A stretch of DNA of 64,000 nucleotides from Candidatus Woesearchaeota archaeon (GCA_016927245.1 JAFGNA010000022.1:3128-67127), one strand, 5' to 3'; positions 5,021 through 64,000 are shown, numbered from the stretch's first letter. The notes: generated by a model from the letters alone, not told the origin. Numbers and translations are program-made.

Positions 5021-6787
5021 CTAGCCACGCCCCCGCTGCCGCTCATACGCAGTCTCGACCATGGACAACGTCGTCAAGTCCTCCACGCCGCGATCAGGCC
5101 GCAGCTTCACGAACCGTGGGAACCGTAACGCGTACCCCGACGTGTACGAAGGTGATTTCTGGATCTCCTCGAACTTGACCTCGACGACCACTTCAGGCCG
5201 CACCACAACGTCACGGCCGGAAGCGGACCGGATCAGCGGCTTCAAGCGCTCAGTCATCCCATCGAACGTGACCGCATCGCCTGACACGGCCTCCTCCTTC
5301 TCCTTGATACCCGTGCCGAACCTGCCGATAGTGACGAGTTCCTCTTGCTGTTCATCAAAGCACGCCACCGTGTAAGACGTGAGCCAGCCGCTCCGCTTGC
5401 CAGTCCCCCACTCCGCACCGACGATGACCAGGTCGAGCGTGTCCATCACCGGCTTGAGCTTAATCATCGTACCCACGCGCGAACCAGGTTGATAAGGGGC
5501 ATCGAGCTTCTTCAACATGACCCCCTCATTACCCGCGGCGAGCGACTCCTTATAGAACTCCTCAGCCTCCGCAACCTCGCCCGTGACCACCCGGGGCATA
5601 ACGACCACGTGCTGCGGCCGCTCCCTGACTATCCGCTCGACGAGCGCTCGTCGCTCAAAGAACGGCCTATCCAAGCACTCCTCGCCATCATAAAAAAGGA
5701 TGTCGAAGACAGCCAGCTCGACGGGCAGCTTCTTCTTCAGCGTCTCAATGTCATATTTCCGCCGGATGCGCTGGCTGATGTCCTGGAATGGCCGGTACTT
5801 CTTGGTACGAGGATCATAGCCCGCCGCTTCAGCGTCAATAATGAATTCCCTCCCGACGACGCGCTCTCGAACGACCTCTACCACGTCAGGGAACTGCTCA
5901 GTAACCTCTTCCAGACGACGAGTAAACAACCTAATATCGCCCTCCGAGGACTTGTGCACCTGGACCCGGAAGCCATCCATTTTGTACTCAACAGCACAAG
6001 GCTTACCCACACGCTCGAACCCCTCCTCGAAATCGATGACCTTCTGCGCCAGCATGACCTTCAACGGCTTGCCCGGCACGACGGAAACCTCTCTGAGGCC
6101 AGAGGCACCCTGCTCCTGGGCGATCCTGGCAACGAGCACGAAGTCGTTCGAGCGGTCCAAGGCCGCCCGCAGCTCAGGGAACCCATTGACCGGCTCGCCG
6201 TCCTTGAGCAGAGCGTTCTTCTCCTCGTCGTAGGTGTAGTCCTTGACGAGATAAGCCCACCCAATGGCATCCCTGAGCGTCCCCTCGGCGATGCCGACGC
6301 GCAAGTCGCCGATGGCGCTACGGACGACGTAACGGGCCTCGACGCCCTTGGCAGAGGAGAGGAGCTGCGCGACGAGCTTCACCTTGGTGCCCATCGCGCC
6401 CTTCCCCTCGCTGGAAGCCACCTTGCGCAGATTGTCAAAGACAGCCTTGACCGTCAAGTCCTCGGAGAACAGGGTCGACTGGGACTTCTTCTCCAATAAC
6501 GACTCAGCCACCCGGCCGATATCGCCCAGATCCCGCCACGTATCAATCACCTGCCGCTCAGAGGCGCCAGACGACGCGGCGATGGCCTTGACCAATAATT
6601 TCTCAGACAGGCCGAGGACGCGCTTGTCCCACAACGGGAAGACCCGTCCCTGCAAGAGCAAGATGACCCGCTCCAGCTCAGCGGCAGGCGTCCCCTGCAA
6701 GAAATCAGCCAGCAAAGCCGTCTTCTCCAAGCGCTTGGAGGTGTTCGACAGGGCATCGTAGACGGCGGCGAGCTTCTCGTAGTCCAT
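5021..6787 (-). CDS. lig: ATP-dependent DNA ligase (ORF extends to 6835; MDYEKLAAVYD at 6787 is the likely start)
   Basis: Adenylation motif EYKMDGFR (KxDG), LVAQLLSSAKGVEARYVVRSAIGDLRVGIAEGTLRDAIG, archaeal/eukaryotic Lig1 family, about 590 aa. Confidence 0.9.
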   Translation of the reverse strand: MDYEKLAAVYDALSNTSKRLEKTALLADFLQGTPAAELERVILLLQGRVFPLWDKRVLGLSEKLLVKAIAASSGASERQVIDTWRDLGDIGRVAESLLEKKSQSTLFSEDLTVKAVFDNLRKVASSEGKGAMGTKVKLVAQLLSSAKGVEARYVVRSAIGDLRVGIAEGTLRDAIGWAYLVKDYTYDEEKNALLKDGEPVNGFPELRAALDRSNDFVLVARIAQEQGASGLREVSVVPGKPLKVMLAQKVIDFEEGFERVGKPCAVEYKMDGFRVQVHKSSEGDIRLFTRRLEEVTEQFPDVVEVVRERVVGREFIIDAEAAGYDPRTKKYRPFQDISQRIRRKYDIETLKKKLPVELAVFDILFYDGEECLDRPFFERRALVERIVRERPQHVVVMPRVVTGEVAEAEEFYKESLAAGNEGVMLKKLDAPYQPGSRVGTMIKLKPVMDTLDLVIVGAEWGTGKRSGWLTSYTVACFDEQQEELVTIGRFGTGIKEKEEAVSGDAVTFDGMTERLKPLIRSASGRDVVVRPEVVVEVKFEEIQKSPSYTSGYALRFPRFVKLRPDRGVEDLTTLSMVETAYERQRGRG

Positions 6788-17641: not shown

Positions 17642-17830
17642 GAGCGTTCCCTCTTGCTTCCTTCCGGACAGTTAAGCTTTTCGGTCATCGCCTGTCTCGG
17701 AGAAGGGGTGGATGGGTGGCGCGTTTCACGCCATGGCGACGACGGCTATGGGCATGGATGAGGGTGAGAAAAAGCCCTTATTTAAAGGTTATGGTGGGTA
17801 GAAGGGAAAAAAAAGGGAAAAACTGTTTGC

Positions 17831-18094
17831 TTAGAACTTCTTGATGTTCGCCGCGGCGGTGAACTTGACCGTCCTGTACGCGGGGATCTTGAGCGGCTTG
17901 CCCGTGGCGGGGTTGACGCCCGTCCTGGCCTTCCTCTTGACCGGCTTGAATGTGCCGAGTCCGAGGAGGATGACAGTCTCTTTCTTGGCAGCTTTTGCGA
18001 TGACGTCGATGGCCTCGTTCAGTATCTCCGTTATCGCGGTCTTCGGGTAGTCCGTCTTCTTCGCCACAAGGTCTACTATGTCTCCTTTGTTCAT
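17831..18094 (-). CDS. Bacterial-type DNA-binding protein HU
   Basis: 87 aa, RTGVNPATGKPLKIPAYRTVKF arm typical of HU/IHF. Confidence 0.8.
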   Translation of the reverse strand: MNKGDIVDLVAKKTDYPKTAITEILNEAIDVIAKAAKKETVILLGLGTFKPVKRKARTGVNPATGKPLKIPAYRTVKFTAAANIKKF

Positions 18095-18250
18095 GGTTCA
18101 TATCACCTGTTACTTGTTCAAACCCCCCACTACACCAGGGTCTTGGACGGGTCGAAGTCGAGGTCATATTTAAATTTACTGCTTTTGTCGGTCCTTTGCA
18201 GGGTGCGGAGAAGAAGGGTTTATATAGGCTTGGTGTGTGCTGGGGGGTGC

Positions 18251-18325
18251 GGGCCCGTAGCCTAGCCTGGATAAGGCGACAGCCTTCTAAGCTGTAGATC
18301 GGGGGTTCGAATCCCCTCGGGCCCA
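18251..18325 (+). tRNA. tRNA-Arg (anticodon TCT)
   Basis: Hand-folded cloverleaf: acceptor GGGCCCG/CGGGCCC, anticodon arm ACAGC-CUUCUAA-GCUGU, T-arm GGGGG-UUCGAAU-CCCCU, discriminator A; TATA gtttatata about 25 nt upstream; T8 run downstream. Confidence 0.85.
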
Positions 18326-18340
18326 TTTTTTTTCGCTCGT
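18326..18340 (+). terminator. Oligo-T termination signal after tRNA-Arg
   Basis: tttttttt immediately 3' of the tRNA. Confidence 0.4.
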
Positions 18341-18388
18341 GGGCGTTCCTGCCTTGCCAAAGGGGCGTGCAGCCTTCCTGCGCGGGGC

Positions 18389-18679
18389 TCACGCCGTTGG
18401 TATCTCTATGGCTTTGCCGTTGATGAGCGCGTCGGTGACCTTGTCCCTGGCGTCGGTGAGGATCCTTTGCAGGGTGCTCTGGTGCACGCCCATGAACTCC
18501 GCGGCGGCTCGTTGGTCCATGCGGAGGATGTTGATGAGGCGCAAGGCTTCTATCTCGTCGAGCGCGAGGTGGACGCGTTCCAGTTTCTCGTCATCGGCGC
18601 CGCATGGCTTGAAGCACGTCACGCGTGGCTTGAACTCGATACATCGTTCTTTCTTCGGACGGGGCATCTTTCGCATCAT
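18389..18679 (-). CDS. DUF134/UPF0251 family putative DNA-binding protein (start possibly MPRPKK at 18667)
   Basis: MPRPKKERCIEFKPRVTCFKPCG N-terminus and C-terminal HTH-like LQRILTDARDKV, typical of archaeal DUF134. Confidence 0.65.
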   Translation of the reverse strand: MMRKMPRPKKERCIEFKPRVTCFKPCGADDEKLERVHLALDEIEALRLINILRMDQRAAAEFMGVHQSTLQRILTDARDKVTDALINGKAIEIPTA

Positions 18680-23630: not shown

Positions 23631-25376
23631 TCAGCAGTAGTACAGCTTGCCGTTGCCCTTTTGTTCCCGGTCTTTTTGCGATCCGAGCTTGTTCACCCGC
23701 GGCCTGCCGGACTCCTCATCCCTCCTGAACGTGATCTGCAGTCCGTCAAGGAACGCGTTCATGCCTTGCTCCATCGTGAAGGGCCCTTCGGCGCGACCCG
23801 TGACCGCTGGTTCCCCTTCAAACACGAGGAGGCCTGTGGAGAGGTAGTCGATGAACAACAAGTCGTGGTCGACTATCAGCGCTGATTTCCCCTGCGCGGC
23901 CATGAGGTCGCCGATGACCTTGCTCACCAGGAGTCGCTGCTCCACGTCGAGGTAGGCGGAGGGCTCGTCCAGCAGGTAGAGGTCTGCTTCTTTCGCGAGG
24001 CAGGCGGCGATGGCCACTCGCTGGAGCTCTCCGCCAGAGAGTTGGTTCAGGGTCTTCTGGAAGAGCTCCTTGAGCTCGAGCGGCGCGATGAGCTGCTGCT
24101 CGTACCGCGACGCATCGTGCAGGTAGGTGACGACGAGGTCGTCGTTCTTCTCGAGGTATTGCGGCTTGTAGCTGACTCTCAGGTCGAGGGCTTGGCCTCT
24201 TTCTTCGCCTGCGAGGAGTTTCACGAAGCTCGTCTTGCCGATGCCATTCTCTCCTAGTATGCCGATGACATCGTGCTTGTTAATCCTGCCGGCGGCCGCT
24301 GAGAGGTGGAAGTCGCCGAGCTCGTGCTCGAACCCTTCCCACGAGGTGAGCTTCTCGGCGTGCGCTTCCTTCGTCGGCGGCCGCTTCTCGAACATGATGG
24401 GCTTGTCCCTGAACCGGACGTTCTCCTCGCGCAAGTAGCCGGAGAGGTAGGTGTTGATGCCTGCTTTCGTTGTGTGCGGGTGGCTGACGACGCCGAACGC
24501 CCCTGCCTGTCCGTACATGAGGTGGACGAGGTCGGTCATGGCATCAAGGATGATGAGGTCATGCTCGATGACCATGACCGCGGTGCCTTCGCCCGCAATC
24601 GACCTGATGAACCTGCTGACCTTGATGCGCTGCTTGATGTCTAGGTAGCTCGTGGGCTCATCAAAGAGGTAGAGGTTCGCTTTTTTCAGGACGGTGGCGG
24701 CTATTGCGGCTCGTTGCAGCTCGCCGCCGCTGAGGTGCTTGACGTCGCGGTCGAGGAACTTGTCCAGGTCCAGCAAGGCCGCTAGCTCTTCCAGCCTGTT
24801 GGTCTCGTCCACCTGTTCGAGAAGTTCGCGCACGGTCCCTTCGAACTGTCTTGGTATCAGGTCGACTTGTTGCGGCTTGTACGCCACCTTGATCTCGCCT
24901 TTGTCGAGCTTGTCGAAGAACGCTTGCGCCTCGCTGCCTCTGTACCTAGTGGCGAGCTCTTTGTAGGTGGATTCCTTGTCTGCCTGCCCGAGGTTGGGCT
25001 TGAGCAGGCCGGCGATGATCTGCAGCGCCGTGCTTTTTCCGATGCCGTTCCTGCCCACGATGCCGACCACTTTCCCGAATATCGGGATGGGGAGTTGGAA
25101 GAGCGCGAAACCGTTCTTGCCGTAGCGGTGGATAGGGTCCTCTTCCAACGCTTCGGGCAGGTTGACCATCATGAGGGCGCCGAACGGACACTTGTTCGCC
25201 GCTATCCGGTCGACGTCGCTGATGACCTCTTCATTCACTTCGACCTTGCCGTCAGCGCTCTTCACGATGGCGTCCTTCCCAGCCCTGTTGCTGGGCGAGA
25301 CCCGCATGCATAGGTAGCCGCCGCAGCCCTGCGGGTTGCACTTCTCCTTCCGCACGATCATGATGCGCTTGGCCAT
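23631..25376 (-). CDS. abcE1: ABCE1 / RNase L inhibitor ribosome-recycling ATPase
   Basis: N-terminal 4Fe-4S cluster cysteines (CNPQGCGGYLC, CPFGA), two ABC modules (GIVGRNGIGKST; GILGENGIGKTS; LSGGELQR twice). Confidence 0.9.
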   Translation of the reverse strand: MAKRIMIVRKEKCNPQGCGGYLCMRVSPSNRAGKDAIVKSADGKVEVNEEVISDVDRIAANKCPFGALMMVNLPEALEEDPIHRYGKNGFALFQLPIPIFGKVVGIVGRNGIGKSTALQIIAGLLKPNLGQADKESTYKELATRYRGSEAQAFFDKLDKGEIKVAYKPQQVDLIPRQFEGTVRELLEQVDETNRLEELAALLDLDKFLDRDVKHLSGGELQRAAIAATVLKKANLYLFDEPTSYLDIKQRIKVSRFIRSIAGEGTAVMVIEHDLIILDAMTDLVHLMYGQAGAFGVVSHPHTTKAGINTYLSGYLREENVRFRDKPIMFEKRPPTKEAHAEKLTSWEGFEHELGDFHLSAAAGRINKHDVIGILGENGIGKTSFVKLLAGEERGQALDLRVSYKPQYLEKNDDLVVTYLHDASRYEQQLIAPLELKELFQKTLNQLSGGELQRVAIAACLAKEADLYLLDEPSAYLDVEQRLLVSKVIGDLMAAQGKSALIVDHDLLFIDYLSTGLLVFEGEPAVTGRAEGPFTMEQGMNAFLDGLQITFRRDEESGRPRVNKLGSQKDREQKGNGKLYYC

Positions 25377-25458
25377 GCGTGCAGAAGAAACACCTGTTCT
25401 TTATAAAGGGTACGGTGCAAACATTTATAAATCAGCGTTGAGGGTACTCAAGCGAGAG

Positions 25459-26640
25459 GTGGGCAACACGGCGCAAACATTCCTTCTCGTGCTGAACTCA
25501 GGCTCGTCATCACTGAAATACTCCTTATTCGAGGAGAAATCCTTGAGGGAGGTCCTGCAAGGCCACGTCGACGGCATCGGCTTGGACAGGTGCTGCCTCA
25601 AGGTCAAGCGAGATAACCAATGGACAGAGACCAAGTTCCTCGCCGAAGACCACCTCCACGCAGTCATAAAGGCGTTCCAATCACTCAAGGACAACGATAT
25701 CCTCCAAGGATTCGACCAGATACAAAAAGTGGGACACAGAGTCGTGCACGGCGGCGAGAAGTTCACCCAGCCCACGAGGATAACGCCGGCGGTGCTGAAG
25801 AAGATAAAATCGCTCTCCGTCCTGGCACCATTGCACAACCCACCGGCATTAGCAGGCATATTGGCGGTCAAGAAAATCTTGCCGAAAGTCCCGCAGATAG
25901 CGGTGTTCGACACCGCGTTCCACCACTCCATCCCGAAAGAGGCGTTCCTGTACGGCCTGCCCTACCAACTGTACGAGGAGCTCGGCATCCGCAAGTACGG
26001 CTTCCACGGCATCAGTCATGAGTACGTCTCGAGATTGGCGAGGAAGGCGCTGAACAAGCAGAGGAGCGAGCAGGAAGAGATAATAACGTGCCACCTCGGC
26101 AACGGCTCCTCCATCACCGCGGTGAAGAACGGCAGGTCCGTGGACACCAGCATGGGCTTCACCCCGCTCGACGGGCTCATCATGGGCACCCGTTCAGGAG
26201 AGATGGACCCGGAGATCATCTTGTTCCTGCTCAACCAGAAGCACTACACGACGGCGCAGCTCGAGAAGATACTGCAGAAGCAATCAGGCCTAAAGGGATT
26301 GGCTGGGAGCAGCGACGTTCGAGAGCTGCACGACCGAGCCTTGAAGAAAGACAAGCAAGCAATCCTGGCACTGGACATGCTCGCCTACCGCATCGCCAAG
26401 TTCATCGGCGCCTACGCGGCAGCCCTCAAAGGATTGGACGCCATCGTGTTCACCGCGGGGATAGGCGAGAACGCGTACTACCTGCGCAAGAAGGCGTGCT
26501 CATACCTCGGCTTTCTCGGCGTCAAGCTCGACGCTCACGCCAACCGCAAGAACTTGACCTACATCTCGAAGCCGAGCAGCAAGGTGAAGGTGCTCGTGCT
26601 GCACACGGACGAGGCACGGGCGATAGCGGAGCAGCTCTGA
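25459..26640 (+). CDS. ackA: Acetate kinase (GTG start at 25459 after GAGAGGT; ORF track extends to 25336)
   Basis: LVLNSGSSSLKYSLF, VVHGGEKF, HLGNGSS, AGIGEN: acetate/propionate kinase signatures. Confidence 0.85.
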   Translation: MGNTAQTFLLVLNSGSSSLKYSLFEEKSLREVLQGHVDGIGLDRCCLKVKRDNQWTETKFLAEDHLHAVIKAFQSLKDNDILQGFDQIQKVGHRVVHGGEKFTQPTRITPAVLKKIKSLSVLAPLHNPPALAGILAVKKILPKVPQIAVFDTAFHHSIPKEAFLYGLPYQLYEELGIRKYGFHGISHEYVSRLARKALNKQRSEQEEIITCHLGNGSSITAVKNGRSVDTSMGFTPLDGLIMGTRSGEMDPEIILFLLNQKHYTTAQLEKILQKQSGLKGLAGSSDVRELHDRALKKDKQAILALDMLAYRIAKFIGAYAAALKGLDAIVFTAGIGENAYYLRKKACSYLGFLGVKLDAHANRKNLTYISKPSSKVKVLVLHTDEARAIAEQL

Positions 26641-26690: not shown

Positions 26691-27933
<1,243 letters not shown>

Positions 27934-27941
27934 TCTTTTTA

Positions 27942-28397
27942 TTGTCCTCTCTCCTTTTTTCTTCTCCGATGCGCAAGCAGCACTCCAAGAAGGACATTAA
28001 GAGGTTCTTAGAGCAACACCCCCAAGCAGAAGGGTTCATGGACAAGAAATCAGTCGTCATCGAGGAGGATGACAAAATCACGGTCGATGGCAACACGTAT
28101 TTCAGGAAGCACGGAGAGGGATGGATTCCTTCCTTGGAGCTCCTACGCGAGCACCACGTTCTACCAGTGGTCATCGTGGACAAAGGGACGCCACCGTTCA
28201 TCCTGAAAGGGGCTGATCTGATGCGGCCAGGCGTCATCAGCTGCGAGTCCTTCAAGAAAGGGGATGTTATCGTCATCGTCGACGAGCAGCACCGCTACCC
28301 CCTCGCCACGGGAAAGGCACTGCTCTCATCAGAGGAGGTAATGGCTAAAAAAGAGGGGAAGGTCGTCAAGGTCATCCACAATCTCAAGAGCGGATGA
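27942..28397 (+). CDS. PUA-domain RNA-binding protein (MCT-1/Tma20-like)
   Basis: About 150 aa with a C-terminal PUA-like region (PPFILKGADLMRPGV..GDVIVIVDEQHRYPLATGKA). Confidence 0.5.
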   Translation: MSSLLFSSPMRKQHSKKDIKRFLEQHPQAEGFMDKKSVVIEEDDKITVDGNTYFRKHGEGWIPSLELLREHHVLPVVIVDKGTPPFILKGADLMRPGVISCESFKKGDVIVIVDEQHRYPLATGKALLSSEEVMAKKEGKVVKVIHNLKSG

Positions 28398-29209
28398 GCT
28401 GTTTGCACAGCTCGTTCACGTAGGCGAGCGTGTCGTCGCCCGTCACGACGACGTCGTAGGCGTCGAGATACACGTCTAGCTTGTCCTCGTCATGCAGGAA
28501 GCCTGCCTTGATGACGGTATCATGCTCGAGGCCGTCGGTCATCCCCGTGTCGCCGAGGAGCAGCACGTTAGGGCGGTCCCTGATGATAGGGAAGAACGCC
28601 TGCTCGCGTAGCTGGACCTCGCTCTTGTTGTAGGAGTGCACGATGCGTCCTTGGTAACCGGTCGCGTACCCGTCATCGTCGAAGGCAAAGAAGTTGGCGA
28701 TGACGTGCATATTGGGATAAAGGACCGCTTCTTTTTTTTAGGAAGCCCTTGATGAGGTCTCCGAGCCCCGAGGAGAAGATGAGGAGGGGCACCCCATGAT
28801 CATGCAGCATCCTAAGGAACTCATCAGCCCCTTCTTTCAGTATTCCTTGGTGGTCGTCGAGTATGCGCTTGAGGACTCCCTTGCTCATGCCCGACCGTAT
28901 CATGAGTTCGTCGTGGGTCGACCACCATTCCTGCATCTTCTGCATCCGTTCCTGTGCGCTCAGCGAAGAGTCTTCTTCAAGGGGCCGGTACGTGTCGTAC
29001 AGCGCGTACGCTTGCTCGGGGTACTCGTGGGAGAGGTACGATCAGCTCCTGATGAGGCCGAACAATGACGGTACCTTTTTTCCTTCGATGACGCTCCGGG
29101 AGAGGGTGCGGTCGAAGTCGGAGATGACGTGCAGCGACTCCCTGCCTGCTGATTGGATAGTCGCGACCTTGCGGTGCAACCTTTCTGGGCGCTTAACGTG
29201 CACGGTCAT
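28384..29209 (-). pseudogene. Cytosolic 5'-nucleotidase III (UMPH-1/HAD) family gene, disrupted by an in-frame TGA and a frameshift
   Basis: Hand translation from ATG at 29209: MTVHVKRPERLHRKVATIQSAGRESLHVISDFDRTLS (HAD DxDxT motif), ...GLIRS, then TGA (29042-29044). The same frame continues SYLSHEYPEQ...IFSSGLGDLIKG. A frame change near the T8 run at 28732-28739 leads into HVIANFFAFDDDGY...LLLGDTGMTD...DVVVTGDD. Colinear with eukaryotic NT5C3. Confidence 0.7.
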
Positions 29210-29212
29210 AGG

Positions 29213-32200
29213 TCACACCTTCAGGGAAGTGACTTTGCTCATGCCGTGCTCGTTCATGCTGATGCCGTAGAGGTTGTCAGACTCGGTGATGACGCCGTCA
29301 TTATGGGAGATGATGATGTACTGCGCTCGCTTAGCATAGGTCTGTATGAGTTTTGCCAATCGTTCCGAATTCTTCTTGTCTAGGGCCGCGTCCACCTCGT
29401 CGAGGATGTAGAACGGCGCGGGCTCGTGCTCCTGCACGGCGAAGATGAACGCCAACGCCGTTAGGGTCTTCTCCCCGCCGGAGAGCGACCTGATATCGAG
29501 GAATTTCTTGCCCGTGATGCGCACCTTGAGCGTGAGTCCTCCGTCGAAGACCTCTTTGGGGTCCTCTAGCTCAAGGGTGGCTTCTCCTTTCGTCGACAGC
29601 GAGTCGAACAATCGCTTGAAGTTGGCGTTCACCACGTTGTACGTCTTCATGAACAACTCCTTCTTCTTCGCATCTACCTCGTTGATCATGACGAGCACGT
29701 TCTCGCGCTCGCCGCCGAGGGAATCCTTCTTCGCCAGCAGTTTCTTGTGCTCTGCATCCACCGTCTCGTAGATCTCGAGGGCCTTCATGTTAACGGCGCC
29801 GATATCCTCGACCATGCGCTCGAACTGGTTGATTTCCCGCTGGATGGAGAGCAATGACTTGTCCTTGAACAAGGGCACGCCCTCGTATTGCTTGAACTCT
29901 TCTTCCAGACCTGCGATTTCAGCCTTGACACGTGCCTGCTCGAGGCTGTTGGCGTTGACCTTCGCTTCTTGGCCGCGGACCTGCTCATTCTTGGCCATGA
30001 TGTCATTCTCTGCCTTGTTCGCCTCATCGGTCATCTTTGATCGCTTGTTGAAGAGCTCCTTGAACTGGTTGTAGAACGCTTTCTGCGCCTTGTCCTTCTC
30101 CACGAGCTCCTTCTCTTGCTGCTTGATGAGCTCCTGTAAGGACCGCTTCTCCTCCTTGAACGATTCTTCTTCCTTTGCGTGCTGCTTGAGGATGTCCTGA
30201 ATCTTCTCTCCCTCTGGGCCGAGGAGGTTGGATGATTCTGCCTCGATGGACTTGAGCTCGATGGTGAGCTCGGTGACTTGCCGCTTGAGCTCCTCTTTCT
30301 TCTCCTCGAAACTGTTCAGCTCGGCGAGCAAAGCCGGGCTCTGCAACGCGTTTATCTGCTCGCGCAGCTGCTGCTTCTCGACTTTCAGCGCCGCGAGCTT
30401 TCGGTTCTCAGATGAAATCTTGTCGGTGACGTCATCATAGCGTTTGTCGAGGTCTCCGAGCTCTTTCTGCAACTTCTTCTTCTCGTCCTTGTCGACGCCC
30501 GCGTCGTCGGCGTCAAGGTGCAGGCTCTTCTCGAGCTTGATGACCTCTCCTTCCAACGCCGCTTTGTGCTCACGGAGCCGCTGGATCGCTTCTTCGTTGT
30601 CCTGCTTCTCCTGGGCGACGCGCGCGATCACTGCTTCCTGATCAGCGATCTCTTTTTCGAGCTTTTCGAGGCTGGAGGAAATCTCTTGGTCTTGAAACCC
30701 GAGCCCTTTGGTGTGCTGCCGGTATCCTCCTTGCATGGCGCCGCTGGTCTCGACGAGATCCCCGGTCAGGGTGACCATACGCGCCTTGCCGACGCCTATC
30801 CTGCGTGCGGTGGCGACGTCATCCACCACAAGGGTGTTGCCGAACACGTAGTGGAAAACCTTCTCGTACTTCTTCTCGTAGTTCAGGAGGTCTATGGCCA
30901 GGCCGTGGACGCCTTTCCCTTTCATGAACCGTATCGTGGGCTCGATGATAGGTGGTTTGAGCTTGTTCAGCGGGAGGAAGGTGGCGACGCCGAGCTTGTG
31001 CTTCTTGAGGTGGCTGATGCAGTCCTCAGCGATGCTGTCATCGTCCACGACGACGCTCCTGATCCTGCCCCCTGCGGCTATCTCCATGGCGACGGCGTAT
31101 TCCTTCTTGGCGCGTCCGAGCTCTGAGACCACGCCGTGGACGCCTTTTCGCTTCATGTCAAGGATGGCATTCATGGCCGTGCCACCGGCGATGCTCTCGC
31201 GTACCCGTGCTTGCTGTCCGCGCAGCTTGGAGTACTCTTCCTGTCGTGAGAGGAGCTTTGTGCGCGCGTTGGCGAGCTGTGCCGCGAGCGACGAGTCCTG
31301 GTTGAAGCATTTGGAGAGCTCGACCGTCGCCTGCTTGAACGCGTCCTTCTTGGCCTTGAGCTCCTGTAGTTGTCCTTTGTGCTCCTTCTCTAATCCTAGG
31401 ACTCGTTGTATCTTCTCGTCGATGGTCTGGAGGCGCATCTCGTACTTGTCCTTCTCGCGCAGCAGCTGCTGCTGCTCTTCCCGCATGGCGCCTATGCCTT
31501 CCGCTACCTTGTCGGCTTCTTGGTCGATGCGCTCCATGCGCCCGTGCATGCCGGACGCGTCTGCCATGTTATGCTTCTTCTTGAACTCCTCTATACGGCC
31601 GTCGATGCGTCGTATCTCGTCCTGCTTGCCCTTGATCTGCTTCTCTAGGTCCTGCTTGCTCTTACGCAGAAGGGATGTCTTGTTGGAGAGCTCTTCAAGG
31701 CTCTTCTCGAGCTCCTGCTTCCGCTGCTTGAGCTTTTCGAGCTCGGCGTCCAGCGTCTGGACTCGTTGCTTGTCAACGGCGTTCCGCACCTTCAGCGATT
31801 CTGTCTCCTTGTGCAGCTTGACTTGTTCCTGCTCGCCTTTCTCCTCGACCTCCTTGTTGATGGCCTCTGCCTGTTTCCGCCGCTCCTCGACTTTTGCCCG
31901 GAGCTTCTCTATGTCCTTTTGATAGCTCGCTATCTTCTTCTTGGCATCGTCGACGGCTGATTGGAACTTAGCGGATTCCTCTTTCTTCTCGCGCAGCTGC
32001 TTGTCTAGCATCGTCGCCTTGTTGCGCTTGATCTTCTCGTCGAGGTCCTTGAACTTCTGCGCTTGGTCGCGCTCCTCCTTGAGCTCCTTGAGGTATACTT
32101 CTCTCTCGGTGAGGATGATGTCCGCCTCGTTCAGGCGTTCCTCCACCCTGGCGAGCTCGCGCAGGGCCTTCTCCTTCTTCTCCTCGTAAATGTTGATGCC

Positions 32201-32698
32201 GGCTATCTCCTCGATGATCTTGCGGCGCTCGTTCGTGCTCATCTCCACGAGGCGCACGATGTCTCCTTGGAGTATGATGTTGTAGCCATCAGGGTCGATG
32301 CGTGCGCGTGATAGGAGTTCGAGCACTTGTTGTCGTGTCATGGTCTTGTTGTTAATCTTGTACACGCTCTGGCCTGATTGCCTGATGAGGCGGGTGATCT
32401 TGACCTCGTCGCCGCCGATGCCGAACGCGTCGCGCTCGTTGGAGAACCAGATGCTCACTTCTCCTTCCTTGGCAGGCTTCTTGAGCTTTCCGCCATTGTA
32501 GATGAGGTTGGCTGATTTCTCCGCTCGCAGCCCTTTTGCGGAGGCCTTGCCGAGGACGAAGCACAAGGCGTCTATGATGTTGCTCTTCCCCGAGCCGTTG
32601 GGGCCGAGGACGCAGTTGAACCGGTCGCCGAAGAGCACCTCTGTCTTGTATGCGAAACTCTTAAAGCCCCGCATCTGCATTCTCGTCACTTGTACCAT
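29213..32698 (-). CDS. smc: Chromosome segregation protein SMC
   Basis: 1161 aa, N-terminal Walker A GPNGSGKSN, long coiled coils, hinge, C-terminal LSGGEKTLTALAFIFA and DEVDAALD. Confidence 0.9.
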   Translation of the reverse strand: MVQVTRMQMRGFKSFAYKTEVLFGDRFNCVLGPNGSGKSNIIDALCFVLGKASAKGLRAEKSANLIYNGGKLKKPAKEGEVSIWFSNERDAFGIGGDEVKITRLIRQSGQSVYKINNKTMTRQQVLELLSRARIDPDGYNIILQGDIVRLVEMSTNERRKIIEEIAGINIYEEKKEKALRELARVEERLNEADIILTEREVYLKELKEERDQAQKFKDLDEKIKRNKATMLDKQLREKKEESAKFQSAVDDAKKKIASYQKDIEKLRAKVEERRKQAEAINKEVEEKGEQEQVKLHKETESLKVRNAVDKQRVQTLDAELEKLKQRKQELEKSLEELSNKTSLLRKSKQDLEKQIKGKQDEIRRIDGRIEEFKKKHNMADASGMHGRMERIDQEADKVAEGIGAMREEQQQLLREKDKYEMRLQTIDEKIQRVLGLEKEHKGQLQELKAKKDAFKQATVELSKCFNQDSSLAAQLANARTKLLSRQEEYSKLRGQQARVRESIAGGTAMNAILDMKRKGVHGVVSELGRAKKEYAVAMEIAAGGRIRSVVVDDDSIAEDCISHLKKHKLGVATFLPLNKLKPPIIEPTIRFMKGKGVHGLAIDLLNYEKKYEKVFHYVFGNTLVVDDVATARRIGVGKARMVTLTGDLVETSGAMQGGYRQHTKGLGFQDQEISSSLEKLEKEIADQEAVIARVAQEKQDNEEAIQRLREHKAALEGEVIKLEKSLHLDADDAGVDKDEKKKLQKELGDLDKRYDDVTDKISSENRKLAALKVEKQQLREQINALQSPALLAELNSFEEKKEELKRQVTELTIELKSIEAESSNLLGPEGEKIQDILKQHAKEEESFKEEKRSLQELIKQQEKELVEKDKAQKAFYNQFKELFNKRSKMTDEANKAENDIMAKNEQVRGQEAKVNANSLEQARVKAEIAGLEEEFKQYEGVPLFKDKSLLSIQREINQFERMVEDIGAVNMKALEIYETVDAEHKKLLAKKDSLGGERENVLVMINEVDAKKKELFMKTYNVVNANFKRLFDSLSTKGEATLELEDPKEVFDGGLTLKVRITGKKFLDIRSLSGGEKTLTALAFIFAVQEHEPAPFYILDEVDAALDKKNSERLAKLIQTYAKRAQYIIISHNDGVITESDNLYGISMNEHGMSKVTSLKV

Positions 32699-32742
32699 AT
32701 TCCTAGTCGGTGGATTGAAAAAGCCTAGTATTTAAAGCTATC

Positions 32743-33882
32743 GTGTCGTCGCGAGCGACGGCGATGACAAGCATGACAAGAATAAACTATATAAATGAAG
32801 GGTGGCTTCGCCCCATCTATATGGTGGACATCGAGACCGTATTGGCGACGGCGTTCTGGGGGAACACGGTGCAGGACTACGCGATAGCCACTGGCATGCT
32901 CATCGCAGGCATCCTCGTCCTGTGGTTCTTCAAGTTCGTCATCATCCAACGGTTCAAGCGGTTGGCGGAGAGGACCAAGAACGACCTTGACGATATGGTT
33001 ATCGAGGCGGGGAACGCCATCGGGTGGCCGTTCTACGTCATCCTCTCCGTGTTCGTCGCCCTGAAGTCCCTGTCGGTCCACCCTGCCTTGGACAAGGGCG
33101 TCTACTTCCTCCTCATCATCACCTTGACGTTCTACGCGGGGAGGATTGTGCACAAGATCATCAGCTTCTTCGCGGAGAAGTGGGACAAGAAGAACGACAA
33201 GAAGGGCTCGGTGGCGCACAGCCCCATCGTGAACATGCTCAAGACGTTCGCGCAGGCCGTGCTGTGGATCATCGTCATCCTCGTCATACTGGACAACCTC
33301 GGCTTCGACGTGACTACCATGCTGGCTGGTATCGGCATCGGCGGCGTGGCCATCGCCATCGCGCTGCAAGGCATCCTCTCAGACGTCTTCGCCTCGGTGA
33401 GCATCTACTTCGACAAGCCTTTCGAGGTGGGCGATTTCATCATCATCGGCGCTGACATGGGCACGGTGGAGAAGATAGGCATCAAATCCACGAGGATCAG
33501 GACATTGCAGGGGCAGGAGCTCGTCGTGTCCAACCAGGAACTGACGAGCTCGCGCATCAACAACTACAAGAAGATGCAGCGCCGGCGCATCGTGTTCTCG
33601 TTCGGCGTCACCTACGACACCCCTGCCAGCAAGCTGCAGAGGATACCAGGCGTGGTAAAGAAGATCATCGACAAAGAGGACCTCGCTGACATCGATCGCT
33701 GCCATTTCAAGTCCTTCGATGATTCCAGCCTGACATTCGAGGTCGTGTACTACATGAAGGTCAGCGATTACAACAAGTACATGGACACCCAGCAGTCCAT
33801 CAACCTCGAGATAGTCAAGGCGTTCGACAAGGCGAAGATAGAGATGGCCTTCCCGACCAGGACGGTGCACTTGAAGAAGTGA
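32743..33882 (+). CDS. Small-conductance mechanosensitive channel MscS family
   Basis: TM3 plus beta-domain pattern GIGGVAIAIALQGILSDVFASVSIYFDKPFEVGDFIIIG..GTVEKIGIKSTRIRT. Confidence 0.75.
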   Translation: MSSRATAMTSMTRINYINEGWLRPIYMVDIETVLATAFWGNTVQDYAIATGMLIAGILVLWFFKFVIIQRFKRLAERTKNDLDDMVIEAGNAIGWPFYVILSVFVALKSLSVHPALDKGVYFLLIITLTFYAGRIVHKIISFFAEKWDKKNDKKGSVAHSPIVNMLKTFAQAVLWIIVILVILDNLGFDVTTMLAGIGIGGVAIAIALQGILSDVFASVSIYFDKPFEVGDFIIIGADMGTVEKIGIKSTRIRTLQGQELVVSNQELTSSRINNYKKMQRRRIVFSFGVTYDTPASKLQRIPGVVKKIIDKEDLADIDRCHFKSFDDSSLTFEVVYYMKVSDYNKYMDTQQSINLEIVKAFDKAKIEMAFPTRTVHLKK

Positions 33883-33943
33883 CCAGCCCTTGCGCGGCGA
33901 AGAAGTTCTCGGCGGCGATGGACCTCGTCAAGGAAGAGCTTCC

Positions 33944-34639
33944 TCAGCAACTCTTCCCTTGGAACAGCTCGACGAACGCTATCTTGACCCAGCCAAGCAA
34001 GGGTATCCTCGTCACGCCGACACCGATGATTTGTTGCTCGTACACCGACTCCTCGACGATGCCTCTCGCAGGGTCATCGATCATGTCAGGGTTGTGATCG
34101 CCCTTAGTCTGGAACACGTGGCCGGTAGCAGTCATCTCAGCACCGATGACGCGGTGGATGATGGGATAAGGAGGATTGGCATCCTTGTTAGTAGGCACCG
34201 CCTGGAAGACGATGATGTCGCCGACCTCGATGGCCTCGGGGTCCTTGCCGCGCAGCACGATGATATCTCCCTTGGAGAACCCTTCGCTGAAAGGGAACGT
34301 TGAGAACTCCTCTTCCAGGATGCCATAATCCTCGTACCAGTCACCGCACACCTCCCAGAAGTCGTGGTCCGCCGGGCGTTGCCTCTCGATGTCGTCGCAG
34401 AGCGCGTACGTCTTCTCACAAGCGTTGCGGGTATAGCCGTGGTCCATGCTCTCACTCACCACGGCGACGACGGGCAAAGACGTCCCCATGACGAGGCCGA
34501 GCAGGGGGTAGACGACGAACTTTATGAGGATGAACGCGAGCACGATGTTGACGGCCCAGCTCGCCAATGAGTCCTCGTACCAGATGAAATACCAAGCCTT
34601 GCCCAGGGGTGTGACTGGCTTCCTTCGCTGCTTCGCCAT
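33944..34639 (-). CDS. Signal peptidase I (archaeal Sec11/S26 type)
   Basis: N-terminal TM then VVSESMDHG (catalytic Ser box), GDIIVF, IIHRVIG. Confidence 0.65.
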   Translation of the reverse strand: MAKQRRKPVTPLGKAWYFIWYEDSLASWAVNIVLAFILIKFVVYPLLGLVMGTSLPVVAVVSESMDHGYTRNACEKTYALCDDIERQRPADHDFWEVCGDWYEDYGILEEEFSTFPFSEGFSKGDIIVLRGKDPEAIEVGDIIVFQAVPTNKDANPPYPIIHRVIGAEMTATGHVFQTKGDHNPDMIDDPARGIVEESVYEQQIIGVGVTRIPLLGWVKIAFVELFQGKSC

Positions 34640-34692
34640 GAGGGGTGCTGAAACACCGTAGTTTTATAAAGGTTTGTGCTTTTCTGCAGGGC

Positions 34693-35640
34693 ATGCCATT
34701 CTGCCCGAAATGCGGGAAGGACATCCCTTTAGGCCAGGAGTTCTGCGAGGAGCACGCCCCCGTCGAGATAAAGCTACGGCCGTTCGAGATAGCGGTGTGC
34801 AGCTGCGGCCGCGTCAGGACTCATGATCGCTGGTTCACACCTACAAACCTCGAAGCGAGCGTCCTCAAGGCGGCCAAGGAGCACTGCCAGCAGAGGGCTT
34901 CGTTCCGTGTCGAGGAACTGGTCGTGCCCGAGCGGCGCGGCGAGAGAACGACGTGCAAGCTCGTCGCCTCATACCAAGGTAAGGAGTACCCGTCGTCGTG
35001 CACCGTACGCAACCAGCGATGCGACAAGTGCGCGCGCATGGGCACCGAGTACTTCACGGCCAAGGTGCAGCTCCGCGACCCACCAGAAGGGGTGCTCGAG
35101 TATATCGAGTCGTTCCTCGAGCCGCTCACCAGCAAAGGAGTGGCTGTCAACAAGGTGGAAGAAACCCTGAGGGGGCCGGACCTCTACCTAACGCACAAAT
35201 CCTCAGCCAGGCAGCTGGGAGAGAAGCTGGTCAGGAGGTTCGGCGGCGCCATGAAGGCTTCGGAGCAGTTGTTCAGCAGGGACAAGCAGACCTCGAAGGG
35301 CCTCTACCGCCTTAACGTCGTGGTGCAGTTCCCTTCCTTCACGGTCGGCGACGTCGTCCTGGTTGAGAGCCGCGCCGTGCTCGTCACCGGGCTGGGCAAG
35401 CGGTGCACCGGCAGGGACGTGGAACACGACAGGAAGGTCGTGTTCGTGCCGGGCGATGAGGCCGAGGTGCTGCAGCAGTACAAGACCACGATTAGCATGG
35501 TTCATCCTCGGCTAGAGGCCATCCACCCCGTGACGTTCCAATCAGTGCCCGTACGCAACCATCCCGCCATGCTAGGCGCGTATGAGCTTGGCCGGAAGGT
35601 GAAGGCGGTGCTGGCGGGGAAGCGACTCCTTATCATCTGA
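34693..35640 (+). CDS. nmd3: NMD3-family protein (ORF from 34645; MPFCPKCG at 34693 is the likely start)
   Basis: N-terminal CxxC..C zinc-finger pairs (CPKCG..CEEH..CSCG; CDKCAR), about 315 aa, archaeal Nmd3 architecture. Confidence 0.65.
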   Translation: MPFCPKCGKDIPLGQEFCEEHAPVEIKLRPFEIAVCSCGRVRTHDRWFTPTNLEASVLKAAKEHCQQRASFRVEELVVPERRGERTTCKLVASYQGKEYPSSCTVRNQRCDKCARMGTEYFTAKVQLRDPPEGVLEYIESFLEPLTSKGVAVNKVEETLRGPDLYLTHKSSARQLGEKLVRRFGGAMKASEQLFSRDKQTSKGLYRLNVVVQFPSFTVGDVVLVESRAVLVTGLGKRCTGRDVEHDRKVVFVPGDEAEVLQQYKTTISMVHPRLEAIHPVTFQSVPVRNHPAMLGAYELGRKVKAVLAGKRLLII

Positions 35641-35673: not shown

Positions 35674-36846
35674 TTGTTCCCTCTCGTTAGGGACGTCATC
35701 ATGATTAGGGGGGATTTCCACTTATTCTCGTGCCGGAGCGGGCAGCCCTATGCCGAGAAGGTGATGGGCCAGCTAGAATACCTCATTAACCAGCGGGGAG
35801 GAGAGCTTCGTGGCAAGGACCACCTACGGTCGCACGAGCACAGGGAGATGGAATTCATCGACTATTTCCATGACGAGAACTTGAGCATCGGCAAGGTCGA
35901 CAGGCGCCATTTCGAAGACGACGAGATGAAGCTGAACCTAGAGTCGTACGAGAACGTTAGGGATAAGGATGTCTACCTCATCCAGAACGCGTATAACACG
36001 ACGGAAGGGTTGTTGCTGAGCCAGAACATCATGGAGACGCTCATCACCCTTGATTCCTTGCGACGGGTGAAGGCAGGGAACATCACGCTTGTCTGGTTGT
36101 ACTTCGCGTACGGCCGTGGTGATAAGGAGCACGGCAAGGGAGGCATCCCTGCTAGGTTGATGGCGGACCTGCTCACGACCGCAGGCATGGACCGGTTGTT
36201 GACCATGGACCTGCACGCGGACCAGATAACCGGCTTCTTCGACAAGCGACTCGTGCAGGTGGAGCACCTCCACGCCTCTCCGCTGATCATCCATTACGCG
36301 AAGAGCATCGCTGGTATCGACGCGACCATCGCCGCTCCGGACACGGGCGCGGCTGGCAGGTCTGAGTTCTATGCGAAGCATCTCAAGGATGACATGGTGA
36401 TGGGGTACAAGAAGCGCGATTATTCGGTGAACCACAAGGTCGATAATATCAATGTGCTCGGGAAGCCCCATAAGCGGGCCGCTTTCATCGTGGATGACAT
36501 CGTCAGCAAGGGCAGCACCATGATCAAGATGATGGAGCAACTGCGCAAGAAGGGCGTCAAGGAGGCGTATCTCGGCTGCACGCACCCTTTGCTCATCTGC
36601 GATGCGATAGAACGGTTCGACAAGTTCTACCAGGACAGGAAGCATCCTTTCAAGCGATTGATTGGCACTGATGCGATCCCGCAAGATGATGCTATCAAGG
36701 AACGCCCGTGGTACGTGGAGATTGACACGAGCAGGTTCATCGCGAAGGCCATCTATGAGATGCACACCTCTGGCAGCCTGACCAAGCTGCATGACCCGTT
36801 CTGCGTGGAGAAGTATGACCTCTGGGTCGGAACGAACAAGGATTAG
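35674..36846 (+). CDS. Ribose-phosphate pyrophosphokinase (PRPP synthetase) family, atypically long
   Basis: DLHADQITGFF (PRS motif), PRPP-binding loop FIVDDIVSKGSTM; 390 aa versus about 290 typical, with extra N-terminal and internal segments. Confidence 0.6.
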   Translation: MFPLVRDVIMIRGDFHLFSCRSGQPYAEKVMGQLEYLINQRGGELRGKDHLRSHEHREMEFIDYFHDENLSIGKVDRRHFEDDEMKLNLESYENVRDKDVYLIQNAYNTTEGLLLSQNIMETLITLDSLRRVKAGNITLVWLYFAYGRGDKEHGKGGIPARLMADLLTTAGMDRLLTMDLHADQITGFFDKRLVQVEHLHASPLIIHYAKSIAGIDATIAAPDTGAAGRSEFYAKHLKDDMVMGYKKRDYSVNHKVDNINVLGKPHKRAAFIVDDIVSKGSTMIKMMEQLRKKGVKEAYLGCTHPLLICDAIERFDKFYQDRKHPFKRLIGTDAIPQDDAIKERPWYVEIDTSRFIAKAIYEMHTSGSLTKLHDPFCVEKYDLWVGTNKD

Positions 36847-56053: not shown

Positions 56054-56170
56054 GCCTCCGTAGCATAGTGGCTAGTGCGTCGGTCTTGTATTGCGAAAAC
56101 GAGGGTTTTCGAAACTCTCGCTGTCGTTCGAGCAAACCGAAGGTCCCGGGTTCGACTCCCGGCGGGGGCT
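56054..56170 (+). tRNA. tRNA-Thr (anticodon TGT) with 44-nt intron at 37/38
   Basis: Acceptor GCCUCCG/CGGGGGC, D-arm GCAU-AGUGGCUA-GUGC, anticodon arm UCGGU-CUUGUA[intron]A-ACCGA, T-arm CCGGG-UUCGACU-CCCGG, discriminator U. Exon nts 32-35 CUUG pair 4/4 with intron CGAG ahead of the 3' splice site (BHB-like). Confidence 0.8.
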
Positions 56171-56314
56171 TCTTTCTCTTATTATAAACAGGTATAACAA
56201 ATATCCTGCTTTTTGGCCGCTTTGTCTTATACCTCCATGTTGATTTTTCTGTATAATGATGAATTTGTGCTAGTGAGTTGTTATTTTATTCGGGTTGCAG
56301 GAAAAAATAACGGG

Positions 56315-57145
56315 CTATTTCTTCTTTGATGCAGTCCCCTTTGCATTGAATGTTCTGTATAATGCGGGTAACGCACTAAGCGATTCTCTCAAATCAATGC
56401 CTAACGATTCCATCGTATTGAAATAATTATCAAGGTTAAGATTGTCATCGCTAGTGATTTCTACGATAAATTTTTTGTTGAGTTTTTGAGAAATGCGTCT
56501 AAGTTCATGTTCTTCAGGAGAATATTCTGTTTCTCGTCCTGCGAATCTCTTGAAGAATGTGGGGGCTTTCGTTTCTAAGCCAGTGTCAGCCGTCCAATAC
56601 ATCTCGTCGTTGAAGAAATCTGTTTTCACGAATTCCTCAAAGTAATGTGCTTTTTCTAGCATGAATTTTGATACTTTGGGTAATGGACCGAGTCGCCACA
56701 CATCCATTGTCGATGGGTTTTTTCCTTTGCTTTGTATGTCTATGCGCTCGATTAATCCTTTTTTTGCGAGTTGTTTTAGTGCGTTAGCGCAGTGTGTTTT
56801 CTTGTATTTTTGGTGCAATCCATCTTTTATGAATGGACCCGTCATCATGTAAGAATCATAATATCTTTGTGCCCTGACATGCTTCGCAGTCCATTGGATG
56901 TATTTAGGTTTTCCAGCAAAGACATCACCATCATCTTGCCCATCGTCGGTCTTGCCACCATCGTAATTCCTTTTGAAATCTGTTGCTCTCGCGAATAGTT
57001 GATTTTCGTTTAGTGTTGTAGAGGTTATTTTTTGCGTTTTTTTCTCTTCATCAGTCTTGGGGTTGGGGTGAGGATTGGCCATAAAAAGTATTATTTGTTC
57101 TTGTATGTCTTTCGGGTATTTAGTCCGTTTATTGGCTGTTTTCAC
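56315..57145 (-). CDS. Hypothetical protein of the integrated element
   Basis: 276-aa AT-rich ORF, Lys-rich, no clear motif. Confidence 0.4.
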   Translation of the reverse strand: MKTANKRTKYPKDIQEQIILFMANPHPNPKTDEEKKTQKITSTTLNENQLFARATDFKRNYDGGKTDDGQDDGDVFAGKPKYIQWTAKHVRAQRYYDSYMMTGPFIKDGLHQKYKKTHCANALKQLAKKGLIERIDIQSKGKNPSTMDVWRLGPLPKVSKFMLEKAHYFEEFVKTDFFNDEMYWTADTGLETKAPTFFKRFAGRETEYSPEEHELRRISQKLNKKFIVEITSDDNLNLDNYFNTMESLGIDLRESLSALPALYRTFNAKGTASKKK

Positions 57146-57364
57146 GGAGTATATGGACTGTATATCTGCTATTTATAAGTATCTATTTTGACCTTTAAAT
57201 AACGTATTTTGTTCACAAAAAAACTCTATTAGCGTAGGAAAATAATTTTTACAAGCATGAATACCCCATTAACATGAAGGAATTACCACGAGAAGTGGAA
57301 GAGCAACTCAGCATAGAAGTTCGCATAATACGAGCCTTTTACTTCTCGAAGCGGAGGGAAAAAC

Positions 57365-57529
57365 ATGAAGCAAGAAGTCAAGCAACTGATGGTGTACGTG
57401 CCGAAGACAATCCACAATAGGCTACGGCAACACTCAAAGAAAGTAGGCATCAACATGAGCGCACTAGCAAAACTAGCACTACACCAATACCTGGAGAACG
57501 AGGCGAACAACGATGAACGTGCACAATAG
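57365..57529 (+). CDS. Ribbon-helix-helix (CopG-like) protein, plasmid copy-control type
   Basis: Hand-translated 54 aa MKQEVKQLMVYVPKTIHNRLRQHSKKVGINMSALAKLALHQYLENEANNDERAQ; directly upstream of the replicase, as with pRN1 orf56. Confidence 0.6.
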   Translation: MKQEVKQLMVYVPKTIHNRLRQHSKKVGINMSALAKLALHQYLENEANNDERAQ

Positions 57530-57992
57530 ACTCATGAAGGACGAGTTCCGCTTCATCCTTTTAGAAGATGGAGGAAAGCCAATGGAACCCGCATGGCGAG
57601 AAAAGAACAACTATACCTATAGAGACAAGAAACTCAAAGACCACGTCTGGAAGAACCTCCCTTACGCCATCCTTTGCGGCAAGGGCAATCTCGTTGCAGT
57701 AAGCTTCAAGGACCGAGAAGCCTATGATAAGTATGCTGATGCATTGCCCTTGACACTCATGGCATCCCTCAAGACACTTAGCAAAGTAAGTTACTATTAT
57801 TGCGAGAACGCCCGAACAAAGATAATTAGGAACAAGAAGAACAAGCACGTAGCAACAATTCATGGAAAAGGCTCGTACTGCCTCGCACCAGAAAAGAGCC
57901 TAACCAGTTCATCGTGGTGTGATTACGTGTTCGACGTTCCCATTACTCGCATTAAGTACGAAGAACTAGAAGCCGTTTTCGATGAAAAATGA
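57513..57992 (+). CDS. PrimPol-domain paralog with substituted catalytic aspartates (likely inactive)
   Basis: Aligns with the N-terminus of the downstream replicase (RFILLEDGG..YAILCGKGNLVAVSFKD vs RFIIMWGKK..YGLLCGAGNYLVVDFDD); the DxD motif is replaced by SxK. Confidence 0.5.
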   Translation: MNVHNRLMKDEFRFILLEDGGKPMEPAWREKNNYTYRDKKLKDHVWKNLPYAILCGKGNLVAVSFKDREAYDKYADALPLTLMASLKTLSKVSYYYCENARTKIIRNKKNKHVATIHGKGSYCLAPEKSLTSSSWCDYVFDVPITRIKYEELEAVFDEK

Positions 57993-60109: not shown

Positions 60110-60599
60110 GTGTTGCCAGGATTGCCATAATTGCCACCATTCTTATATTGTGAATACCACTTATTGTATTTGGTATAATGGAATAAAGAAAGGTGGCAAA
60201 CCTGACAATTGTGGCAAAAAGAAGCATAAGCATTATATTTGCCATCACATTCCCACAGGCATGGTCTACGAAGCCCGTACATTTGGTGCCTGGGAGGTCG
60301 AGGACGACCTCATCCAAATAGGCATCCTTGACTACCCAATAATCCTTTCGTTCACCTACGAGCAACTTAATAGCATTAGAAGGGACCTCTCACAGCTGCC
60401 TGATTTCCAGGTCTACGATGACGAGCTACGAGATTTTGACTCGATTAGAGCATACACGTCACCCGGAGAGGAAATGGTCTACGTCCTCTTCAAAGAGCTA
60501 GGAGGACTAAGCGTAGGCATACCTAAGAAGGAGTTCTCGACCTTCTGCGAGGAGCTGGTGCAGCTCAACCCGCAATTCATGCTGGAACGGGAAAATTGA
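60102..60599 (+). CDS. Cys/His-rich small protein (putative zinc-binding), C-terminal half of higher GC
   Basis: MGKCCQDCHNCHHSYIV..CIWYNG..CGKKKHKHYICHH N-terminus; ATG overlaps the replicase stop. Confidence 0.4.
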   Translation: MGKCCQDCHNCHHSYIVNTTYCIWYNGIKKGGKPDNCGKKKHKHYICHHIPTGMVYEARTFGAWEVEDDLIQIGILDYPIILSFTYEQLNSIRRDLSQLPDFQVYDDELRDFDSIRAYTSPGEEMVYVLFKELGGLSVGIPKKEFSTFCEELVQLNPQFMLEREN

Positions 60600-60780
60600 C
60601 ATTCCCTCAAGCCATTTATAAACAGTTTGTTTATAAACAGTTCATTTATAAACGGCGATAGAGGGGCAGGGAGTATTTTAAGGATGGATTAAAATAACGC
60701 CACCAAAAGGAGGCTTTCGAGCATTTCTCGCCTTCAAATTGCAAATCTATATAAGAATCACCTTTTAACCACTTCAAAGT

Positions 60781-63979: not shown

Positions 63980-64000
63980 AGTATTTTCATATGTTATTCT

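Follow-up and report, generated by a model that had tools for sequence, protein, structure and literature searches.

In the cN-III (UMPH-1) 5′-nucleotidases, HAD motif I is defined as DXDX[T/V], and motif II as three hydrophobic residues followed by Ser or Thr (PMC3946280). Motif III has the form K(X)n D(X)0-4 D, seen as the segment K(X)n-D-SIG-D, and both of its Asp residues are invariant and coordinate the catalytic Mg2+ in DmcN-IIIB (PMC3946280). The pyrimidine-specific cN-IIIA enzymes carry the specificity pattern HNWY, and the m7GMP-preferring Drosophila cN-IIIB carries FGWW (PMC3946280). Literature searches on archaeal or DPANN UMPH-1 proteins returned nothing specific. Homopolymer-frameshifted pseudogenes are known from reduced genomes, such as those of insect endosymbionts, where some are partly rescued by transcriptional slippage.

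The locus described here lies on the minus strand of a 64-kb window, the whole stretch of DNA analysed (64,000 nucleotides of a Candidatus Woesearchaeota archaeon; GCA_016927245.1 JAFGNA010000022.1:3128-67127). It is very probably a real and evolutionarily recent pseudogene of a DPANN-type UMPH-1/HAD-IE 5′-nucleotidase, carrying three independent disabling mutations. With the human NT5C3A (cN-IIIA) and NT5C3B (cN-IIIB) family it shares motif I, motif II and the catalytic Lys. It differs in that it belongs to a large DPANN-archaeal branch, its frame is broken twice and a Mg-binding Asp is deleted. The source organism is a small-genome archaeon, presumably host-dependent. As in the endosymbiont pseudogenes, expansion of an A-run appears to have broken a dispensable metabolic gene in a small-genome organism; here, however, the run is only 8 nt long, and the gene has in addition a nonsense codon upstream and a deletion in the active site.

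Identity and product of the gene

The gene and its immediate neighbours are as follows.

28384-29209, minus strand: UMPH-1/cN-III-type HAD 5′-nucleotidase pseudogene (from translations, Pfam PF05822 and PDB matches)
29213-32698, minus strand: smc, 1161 aa, immediately upstream and co-directional (from the ORF; length equal to that of orthologs)
27942-28397, plus strand: PUA-domain gene, convergent, overlapping the 3′ end of the pseudogene by 14 nt

The start codon is the ATG at 29209-29207 on the minus strand. In translation, frame 0 extends from 29209 to about 28733, beginning MTVHVKRPERL and passing through HVISDFDRTLS; its opening stretch is MTVHVKRPERLHRKVATIQSAGRESLHVISDFDRTLSRSVIEGKKVPSLFGLIRS. 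Past a TGA at 29044-29042, the same phase runs SYLSHEYPEQ...LLIFSSGLGDLIKGFLKK as far as an A8 run, beyond which frame 0 degenerates and meets a stop 25 codons later. The homologous reading beyond the run lies in frame +1 (about 28732 to 28384), where it reads (KK)EAVLYPNMHVIANFF...CKQLIRS or, in longer form, (KK)EAVLYPNMHVIANFFAFDDDGY...ELCKQLIRS, and ends at the TGA at 28386-28384. Taking one A out of the A8 run and reading through the first TGA yields a repaired product of 274 aa.

The repaired product matched the Pfam UMPH-1 profile (PF05822) with E=5.4e-63 and 213.2 bits over profile positions 2-245 of 246, against a curated gathering score of 23.7 bits. Residues 2-271 are colinear with human NT5C3B (7zee; E=1.8e-54), with 33% identity (90/269), and the PDB matches to NT5C3B and to mouse and human NT5C3A ranged from E=1e-54 to 1e-49. 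A sequence-only reading of the DNA had already recognised a UMPH-1/cN-III gene, colinear with NT5C3 over about 270 aa and bearing the HAD DxDxT motif as ISDFDRTLS; the profile search, the structural matches and the frame 0 translation of the minus strand each bear it out.

Against the NCBIfam model TIGR01544 (HAD-IE, a hypothetical equivalog), the repaired product scored 216.2 bits (E=4.6e-64), below the curated equivalog cut-off of 256.95 bits. The intact ortholog introduced below (P0001) also falls short, at 220.7 bits, and the shortfall is therefore attributed to divergence of the archaeal branch and not to decay. The ancestral gene would have encoded a Mg-dependent nucleoside-monophosphate phosphatase of approximately 278 aa, directly downstream of smc.

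An intact syntenic ortholog

Intact orthologs, for which the sequence-only reading had advised a search of related genomes, were found in two relatives. The first, P0001, lies on ENA ERZ23510489 NODE_2572 (locus L002), in the order NMD3–hypothetical–SMC (1161 aa)–UMPH-1 (278 aa, intact)–PUA–GAPDH–hypothetical–AckA, and the locus shares 73% nucleotide identity with the window over 7.4 kb. Its position, its orientation and its neighbours NMD3, SMC, PUA, GAPDH and AckA are those of the window gene, as is the 14-nt overlap with the convergent PUA gene; the two proteins are 61% identical. Unlike the window gene, P0001 is an uninterrupted ORF of 278 aa, with GGC at the TGA site, no A8 run and the full GDSLGD motif. 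The second is found in Woesearchaeota Bin_423, where smc is followed by an intact UMPH-1 gene; the two contigs concerned share a 24-nt overlap that spans the smc end.

The smc stop TGA occupies 29215-29213, leaving 3 nt before the pseudogene ATG, in accordance with an earlier placement of the start 4 nt after that stop. A single nucleotide separates the smc stop from the ATG of P0001.

Catalytic motifs and substrate-specificity positions

Three catalytic elements are preserved in the repaired product.

29105-29119, minus strand: HAD motif I, DFDRT, aa 31-35, intact, with the Asp residues that serve as nucleophile and as acid/base (translation, alignment)
28772-28783, minus strand: HAD motif II, LIFS, aa 143-146, intact (translation, alignment)
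28624-28626, minus strand: conserved Lys K195 (in NKSE) of the K(X)n-D-xxxx-D motif, intact (alignment)

The columns of D31, F32, D33 and T35 in motif I are invariant in the alignment of homologs, as are those of N194 and K195. Motif III calls for two Mg-coordinating Asp residues; the repaired product has kept the Lys and has one of the two Asp residues deleted.

The substrate-specificity positions of the repaired protein are F50-G51 (window 29059-29064) and W95-W96 (28924-28929). The resulting FGWW is the pattern of the m7GMP-preferring Drosophila cN-IIIB and differs from the HNWY of cN-IIIA (PMC3946280). Similarly, the DPANN UMPH-1 proteins in the alignment show x-[G/A]...W-W at these positions.

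Three disabling lesions

The gene carries three lesions of unrelated type.

29042-29044, minus strand: lesion 1, in-frame TGA at codon 56 (translation, ortholog and homolog alignments)
28732-28739, minus strand (T8 on the plus strand): lesion 2, A8 run in the mRNA sense (CUA AAA AAA AGA...), +1 frameshift (translations, alignments)
28549-28557, minus strand: lesion 3, junction of a 12-nt in-frame deletion (protein alignment, DNA alignment to the ortholog)

The plus-strand base at 29044 is A in the window. At the position of the TGA, Gly is found in 101 of 120 homologs and Cys in 2, and the GGC of the syntenic ortholog likewise encodes Gly. The simplest history would be a transversion of GGA (Gly) to TGA, with translation ending after 55 residues, just past motif I. 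TGA is the commonest stop in the window, where it terminates 31 of 57 long ORFs, and the smc TGA is a true stop because the length of smc (1161 aa) equals that of its orthologs. The minus-strand translation agrees with the sequence-only reading that this TGA breaks the frame, and these counts with its view that TGA is a genuine stop here.

Removal of one A from the A8 run produces ...GFLKKEAVLYPNMHV..., which agrees with the family consensus GFLKKE. The ortholog has CTT GAG AAG GAG at this site, without the run; the corresponding stretch of L002 is CTTGAGAAGGAG, and each of the 120 homologs, like the ortholog, is read in a single frame. Apart from the A8 run, no homopolymer of at least 8 nt lies within a real coding region of the window. 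The A8 run may have arisen from A7 by replication slippage, which would have shifted the frame ahead of the C-terminal 40% of the protein. Both the catalytic Lys and the pair of Mg-binding Asp residues lie in this region, behind the frameshift. A frame change near the T8 at 28732-28739 had been suspected from the sequence, and the homologous reading does move to the +1 frame after the run.

The third lesion had been missed by the sequence-only reading. The window protein reads NVLLLGDT----GMTDGL, against NVxLLGDSxGDxxM in every homolog (25, then 120 aligned). The homolog motif LLGD-S-L-G-D-x-x-M is replaced by LLLGD----TGM, so that GDSLGD has collapsed to GD. At the DNA level, the ortholog has CTC GGT GAC TCC TTG GGC GAT CCT where the window has CTC GGC GAC ACG; the deletion took one of two Gly-Asp codon pairs (GGY GAY) together with the spacer. 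The extra sequence of the undeleted form is GGYGAYNNNNNN, and its site in the window lies at about 28554/28555. The lost residue is Asp in 120/120 homologs, and a gap occurs there in 0/120.

Lesion 3 is a 12-nt deletion between adjacent Gly-Asp codon pairs, at the cost of one of two invariant Mg-coordinating Asp residues. Such a signature would be left by slipped-strand deletion between short imperfect repeats. As no relative above 61% amino acid identity was found, this deletion may conceivably be an older change that the window lineage has tolerated. From the three lesions, the gene is predicted to have lost its activity.

Recurrence of the lesions in a second assembly

The Logan assembly SRR13394437 contains a 12.8-kb contig whose 7,755-bp locus matches window 26956-34710 with 100% identity, no gaps and all three lesions. 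This contig was found through its 108-aa C-terminal ORF. It comes from a different, unitig-based assembler, and may share reads with the metagenome-assembled genome (MAG), which leaves a small probability of a systematic sequencing error or of a minority intact allele. The lesions are disabling by comparison with an intact syntenic ortholog and are repeated across assemblies, which supports the reading of the locus as a pseudogene.

One alternative is that the MAG represents one allele of a polymorphic population, in which strains with an intact gene coexist and the loss is segregating and not fixed. This is plausible in that the inactivation seems recent and the gene dispensable in the clade, and it is compatible with the explanation favoured here. 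However, the unitig-based Logan contig is unbroken for 12.8 kb across the three sites, which is weak evidence that the sample had no abundant alternative allele. Moreover, no near-identical intact allele was found in a protein collection of 5.8 billion clusters, where the best match had 61% identity, and no closer relative in the JGI metagenomes, which gave one distant match (43%), or among GTDB species representatives, a set that does not include the source genome, where the best match reached 53%. A look-up of the SMC protein P0121, 100% identical to that of the window, led to no recorded contig. An allele still segregating is considered very unlikely.

Another alternative is that the organism has an intact gene, and that errors of sequencing, assembly or consensus calling put the stop and the frameshift into the MAG. 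The frameshift does lie in an 8-nt homopolymer, a classic error site, and the source sequence is a metagenome-assembled genome. Against this, one lesion is a transversion, one a 1-nt indel in a homopolymer and one a 12-nt deletion, three unrelated types, and assembly errors do not typically delete 12 nt together with an invariant catalytic residue. No other broken-looking gene was found among the approximately 57 long ORFs that tile the 64 kb, and homopolymers of 6-7 nt are common inside these ORFs without breaking any of them. Assembly error is therefore very improbable, given the identical 7.7-kb Logan sequence and the otherwise unbroken ORFs of the window. The sequence-only reading had hesitated between a gene undergoing pseudogenisation and an assembly error; with three lesion types, an identical second assembly and an intact syntenic ortholog, the former is favoured and the latter largely set aside.

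Automatic gene calling on the Logan contig (L001) splits the pseudogene into a 55-aa ORF at 5502-5669, an antisense 90-aa ORF at 5643-5915 and a 108-aa ORF at 6001-6327 tagged UMPH-1. Public collections list these fragments as individual proteins. Annotation should flag the locus as a pseudogene and give the 55-, 90- and 108-aa ORFs no gene entries of their own. Plus-strand ORFs at 28796-29068 and 28863-29270 were treated as shadow ORFs, and the L001 gene record lists no Pfam match for the former.

Possible recoding and rescue

A further alternative is that the gene is expressed by recoding, through UGA read-through or selenocysteine insertion at codon 56 combined with +1 slippage, by the ribosome or during transcription, on the A8 run, to give full-length enzyme at a low level. 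A-runs are known slippage sites, and the ancestral ...LKKEAVL... would be restored exactly if tRNA-Lys slipped by +1 on CUA-AAA-AAA-A or if RNA polymerase skipped one A. If true, decoding infidelity would here rescue an archaeal gene that is interrupted twice.

Several observations oppose this alternative. The residue at codon 56 is Gly in most homologs and Cys in only two, and TGA, the stop at which smc ends at ortholog length, is the commonest true stop of the window. The region gave no Rfam match, and shuffled sequences fold as well as the 91 nt that follow the TGA (z=-0.23). The 3′ end is shared with the convergent PUA gene, so that no free 3′ UTR exists. In the ortholog both the run and the stop are missing, which leaves nothing conserved or programmed, and even a fully recoded product would be without one invariant Mg-binding Asp. 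Slippage rescue would be futile because of the upstream nonsense codon and the active-site deletion. Expression by recoding is extremely unlikely on these grounds, and it is scarcely credible that read-through and +1 slippage still yield a trickle of enzyme which the loss of four residues from the Mg-loop has retuned and not killed.

The individual forms of recoding were also rejected one by one. Selenocysteine at codon 56, which the sequence-only reading had wanted checked, is disfavoured by the Gly of homologs, by the use of TGA as the main stop and by the lack of an RNA-family (SECIS-like) match or stable structure; tRNA and Rfam scans found no tRNA-Sec within the 64-kb window. Reading of TGA as Gly (genetic code 25) was considered since Gly is the aligned residue, but smc and 30 other ORFs end at TGA. 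Programmed frameshifting or transcriptional slippage is contradicted by the single frame of the ortholog and of the 120 homologs, and by the absence of the run from the ortholog.

Timing of the inactivation

In the alignment of 120 homologs, the repaired protein departs at 5 of the 55 columns conserved at 90% or above, against 4-8 such columns in its closest intact relatives. Four of its five departures are conservative (S/T, K/R, V/I and H/N), and the fifth is the deleted Asp. Similarly, the identity of approximately 61% to the ortholog is inside the 58-86% range of the flanking genes. There is thus no sign of accumulated missense decay. The conserved-column count fits a very recent inactivation, although it is not positive evidence of relaxed selection. 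Judged from these comparisons, the inactivation of this pseudogene seems to be recent relative to the split from L002.

Turnover in the smc–PUA interval

The slot between smc and the PUA gene was compared between the window (27942-32698) and the loci L002, L003/L084, L085 and L086-L089, of which L085-L089 come from relatives with 71-75% SMC identity. The slot of L085 holds a 247-aa ORF unrelated to UMPH-1, and that of L086 and L087 holds CysRS and a hypothetical gene. In L088 and L089 the slot is empty, and smc directly overlaps the PUA gene. No UMPH-1 remnant was detectable in the loci L085-L089, and no second UMPH-1 copy was found within the 64-kb window. The L085 ORF was considered as a degraded UMPH-1 and rejected, having no similarity (E=0.48) and no significant Pfam match; it shows a weak, non-significant AGOG-like match (E=0.016).

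On these comparisons, the smc–PUA interval is a hotspot of gene turnover in closely related Woesearchaeota. As sister lineages carry UMPH-1 intact, have other genes in its place or lack it cleanly at this slot, the gene is dispensable in the clade, and the window is an intermediate step of its loss. A single slot in a single clade thus presents all stages: an intact gene, a triple-hit pseudogene, a replacement and a clean absence. The case is an ordinary reductive loss of a dispensable gene, caught early, and is one more instance of a known phenomenon. Through the comparison of sister lineages it is an unusually well-documented gene loss in a reduced DPANN genome, and it carries little weight on its own. 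The sequence-only reading had also raised the possibility that the loss affects operon polarity. This is moot, as the next gene, PUA, is convergent and nothing co-directional lies downstream.

Distribution of the family in archaea

The sequence-only reading had called the family mostly eukaryotic and an archaeal homolog rare, a view which the searches overturn. The collection of 5.8 billion protein clusters gave 521 significant matches, of which the named ones belong to Woesearchaeota/Nanoarchaeia. The GTDB species representatives gave 317 UMPH-1 loci. The best 80 of these 317 are nearly all from DPANN lineages (Woesearchaeota, Nanoarchaeota, Iainarchaeota/Diapherotrites and Pacearchaeota), and they also include some generically or dubiously labelled MAGs. 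UMPH-1/cN-III is therefore not essentially eukaryotic; it is common in Woesearchaeota/Nanoarchaeia, with a cN-IIIB-like FGWW motif. Nucleotide turnover in DPANN archaea may deserve separate study.

Other features of the window

The genes beyond PUA encode acetate kinase (25336-26640, plus strand) and a Gp_dh_N/Gp_dh_C-type GAPDH (26935-27933, plus strand). In the relative L088 (9455-9483), a phosphotransacetylase adjoins AckA. The acetate kinase of the window and the phosphotransacetylase of this relative suggest an Ack-Pta fermentative module in these Woesearchaeota. Both the window (35674-36846, plus strand) and Bin_423 have a PRPP synthetase gene between NMD3 and a GH15 glycoside hydrolase; L002 lacks it at that place.

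A 204-aa ORF at 17778-18392 on the minus strand overlaps tRNA-Arg (18251-18325) and two 8-nt homopolymers, and is probably spurious. Two long Rfam tRNA matches, of 105 nt at 41256-41360 (minus strand) and of 117 nt at 56054-56170 (plus strand), were not reported by ARAGORN; they are presumably archaeal intron-containing tRNAs.

A low-GC island (56054-64000; 31-42% GC, against 55-62% upstream) begins right after the tRNA at 56054-56170 and reaches the end of the window. Its genes include a Prim-Pol/CHC2-zinc-finger/DUF5906 replication protein (57989-60109), a TGT-like protein of the queuine tRNA-ribosyltransferase family (61567-63012) and an N6/N4 DNA methylase (63013-63792). The island looks like a mobile element or provirus integrated at a tRNA gene, and the position of the TGT-like gene beside the methylase hints at DNA base modification.
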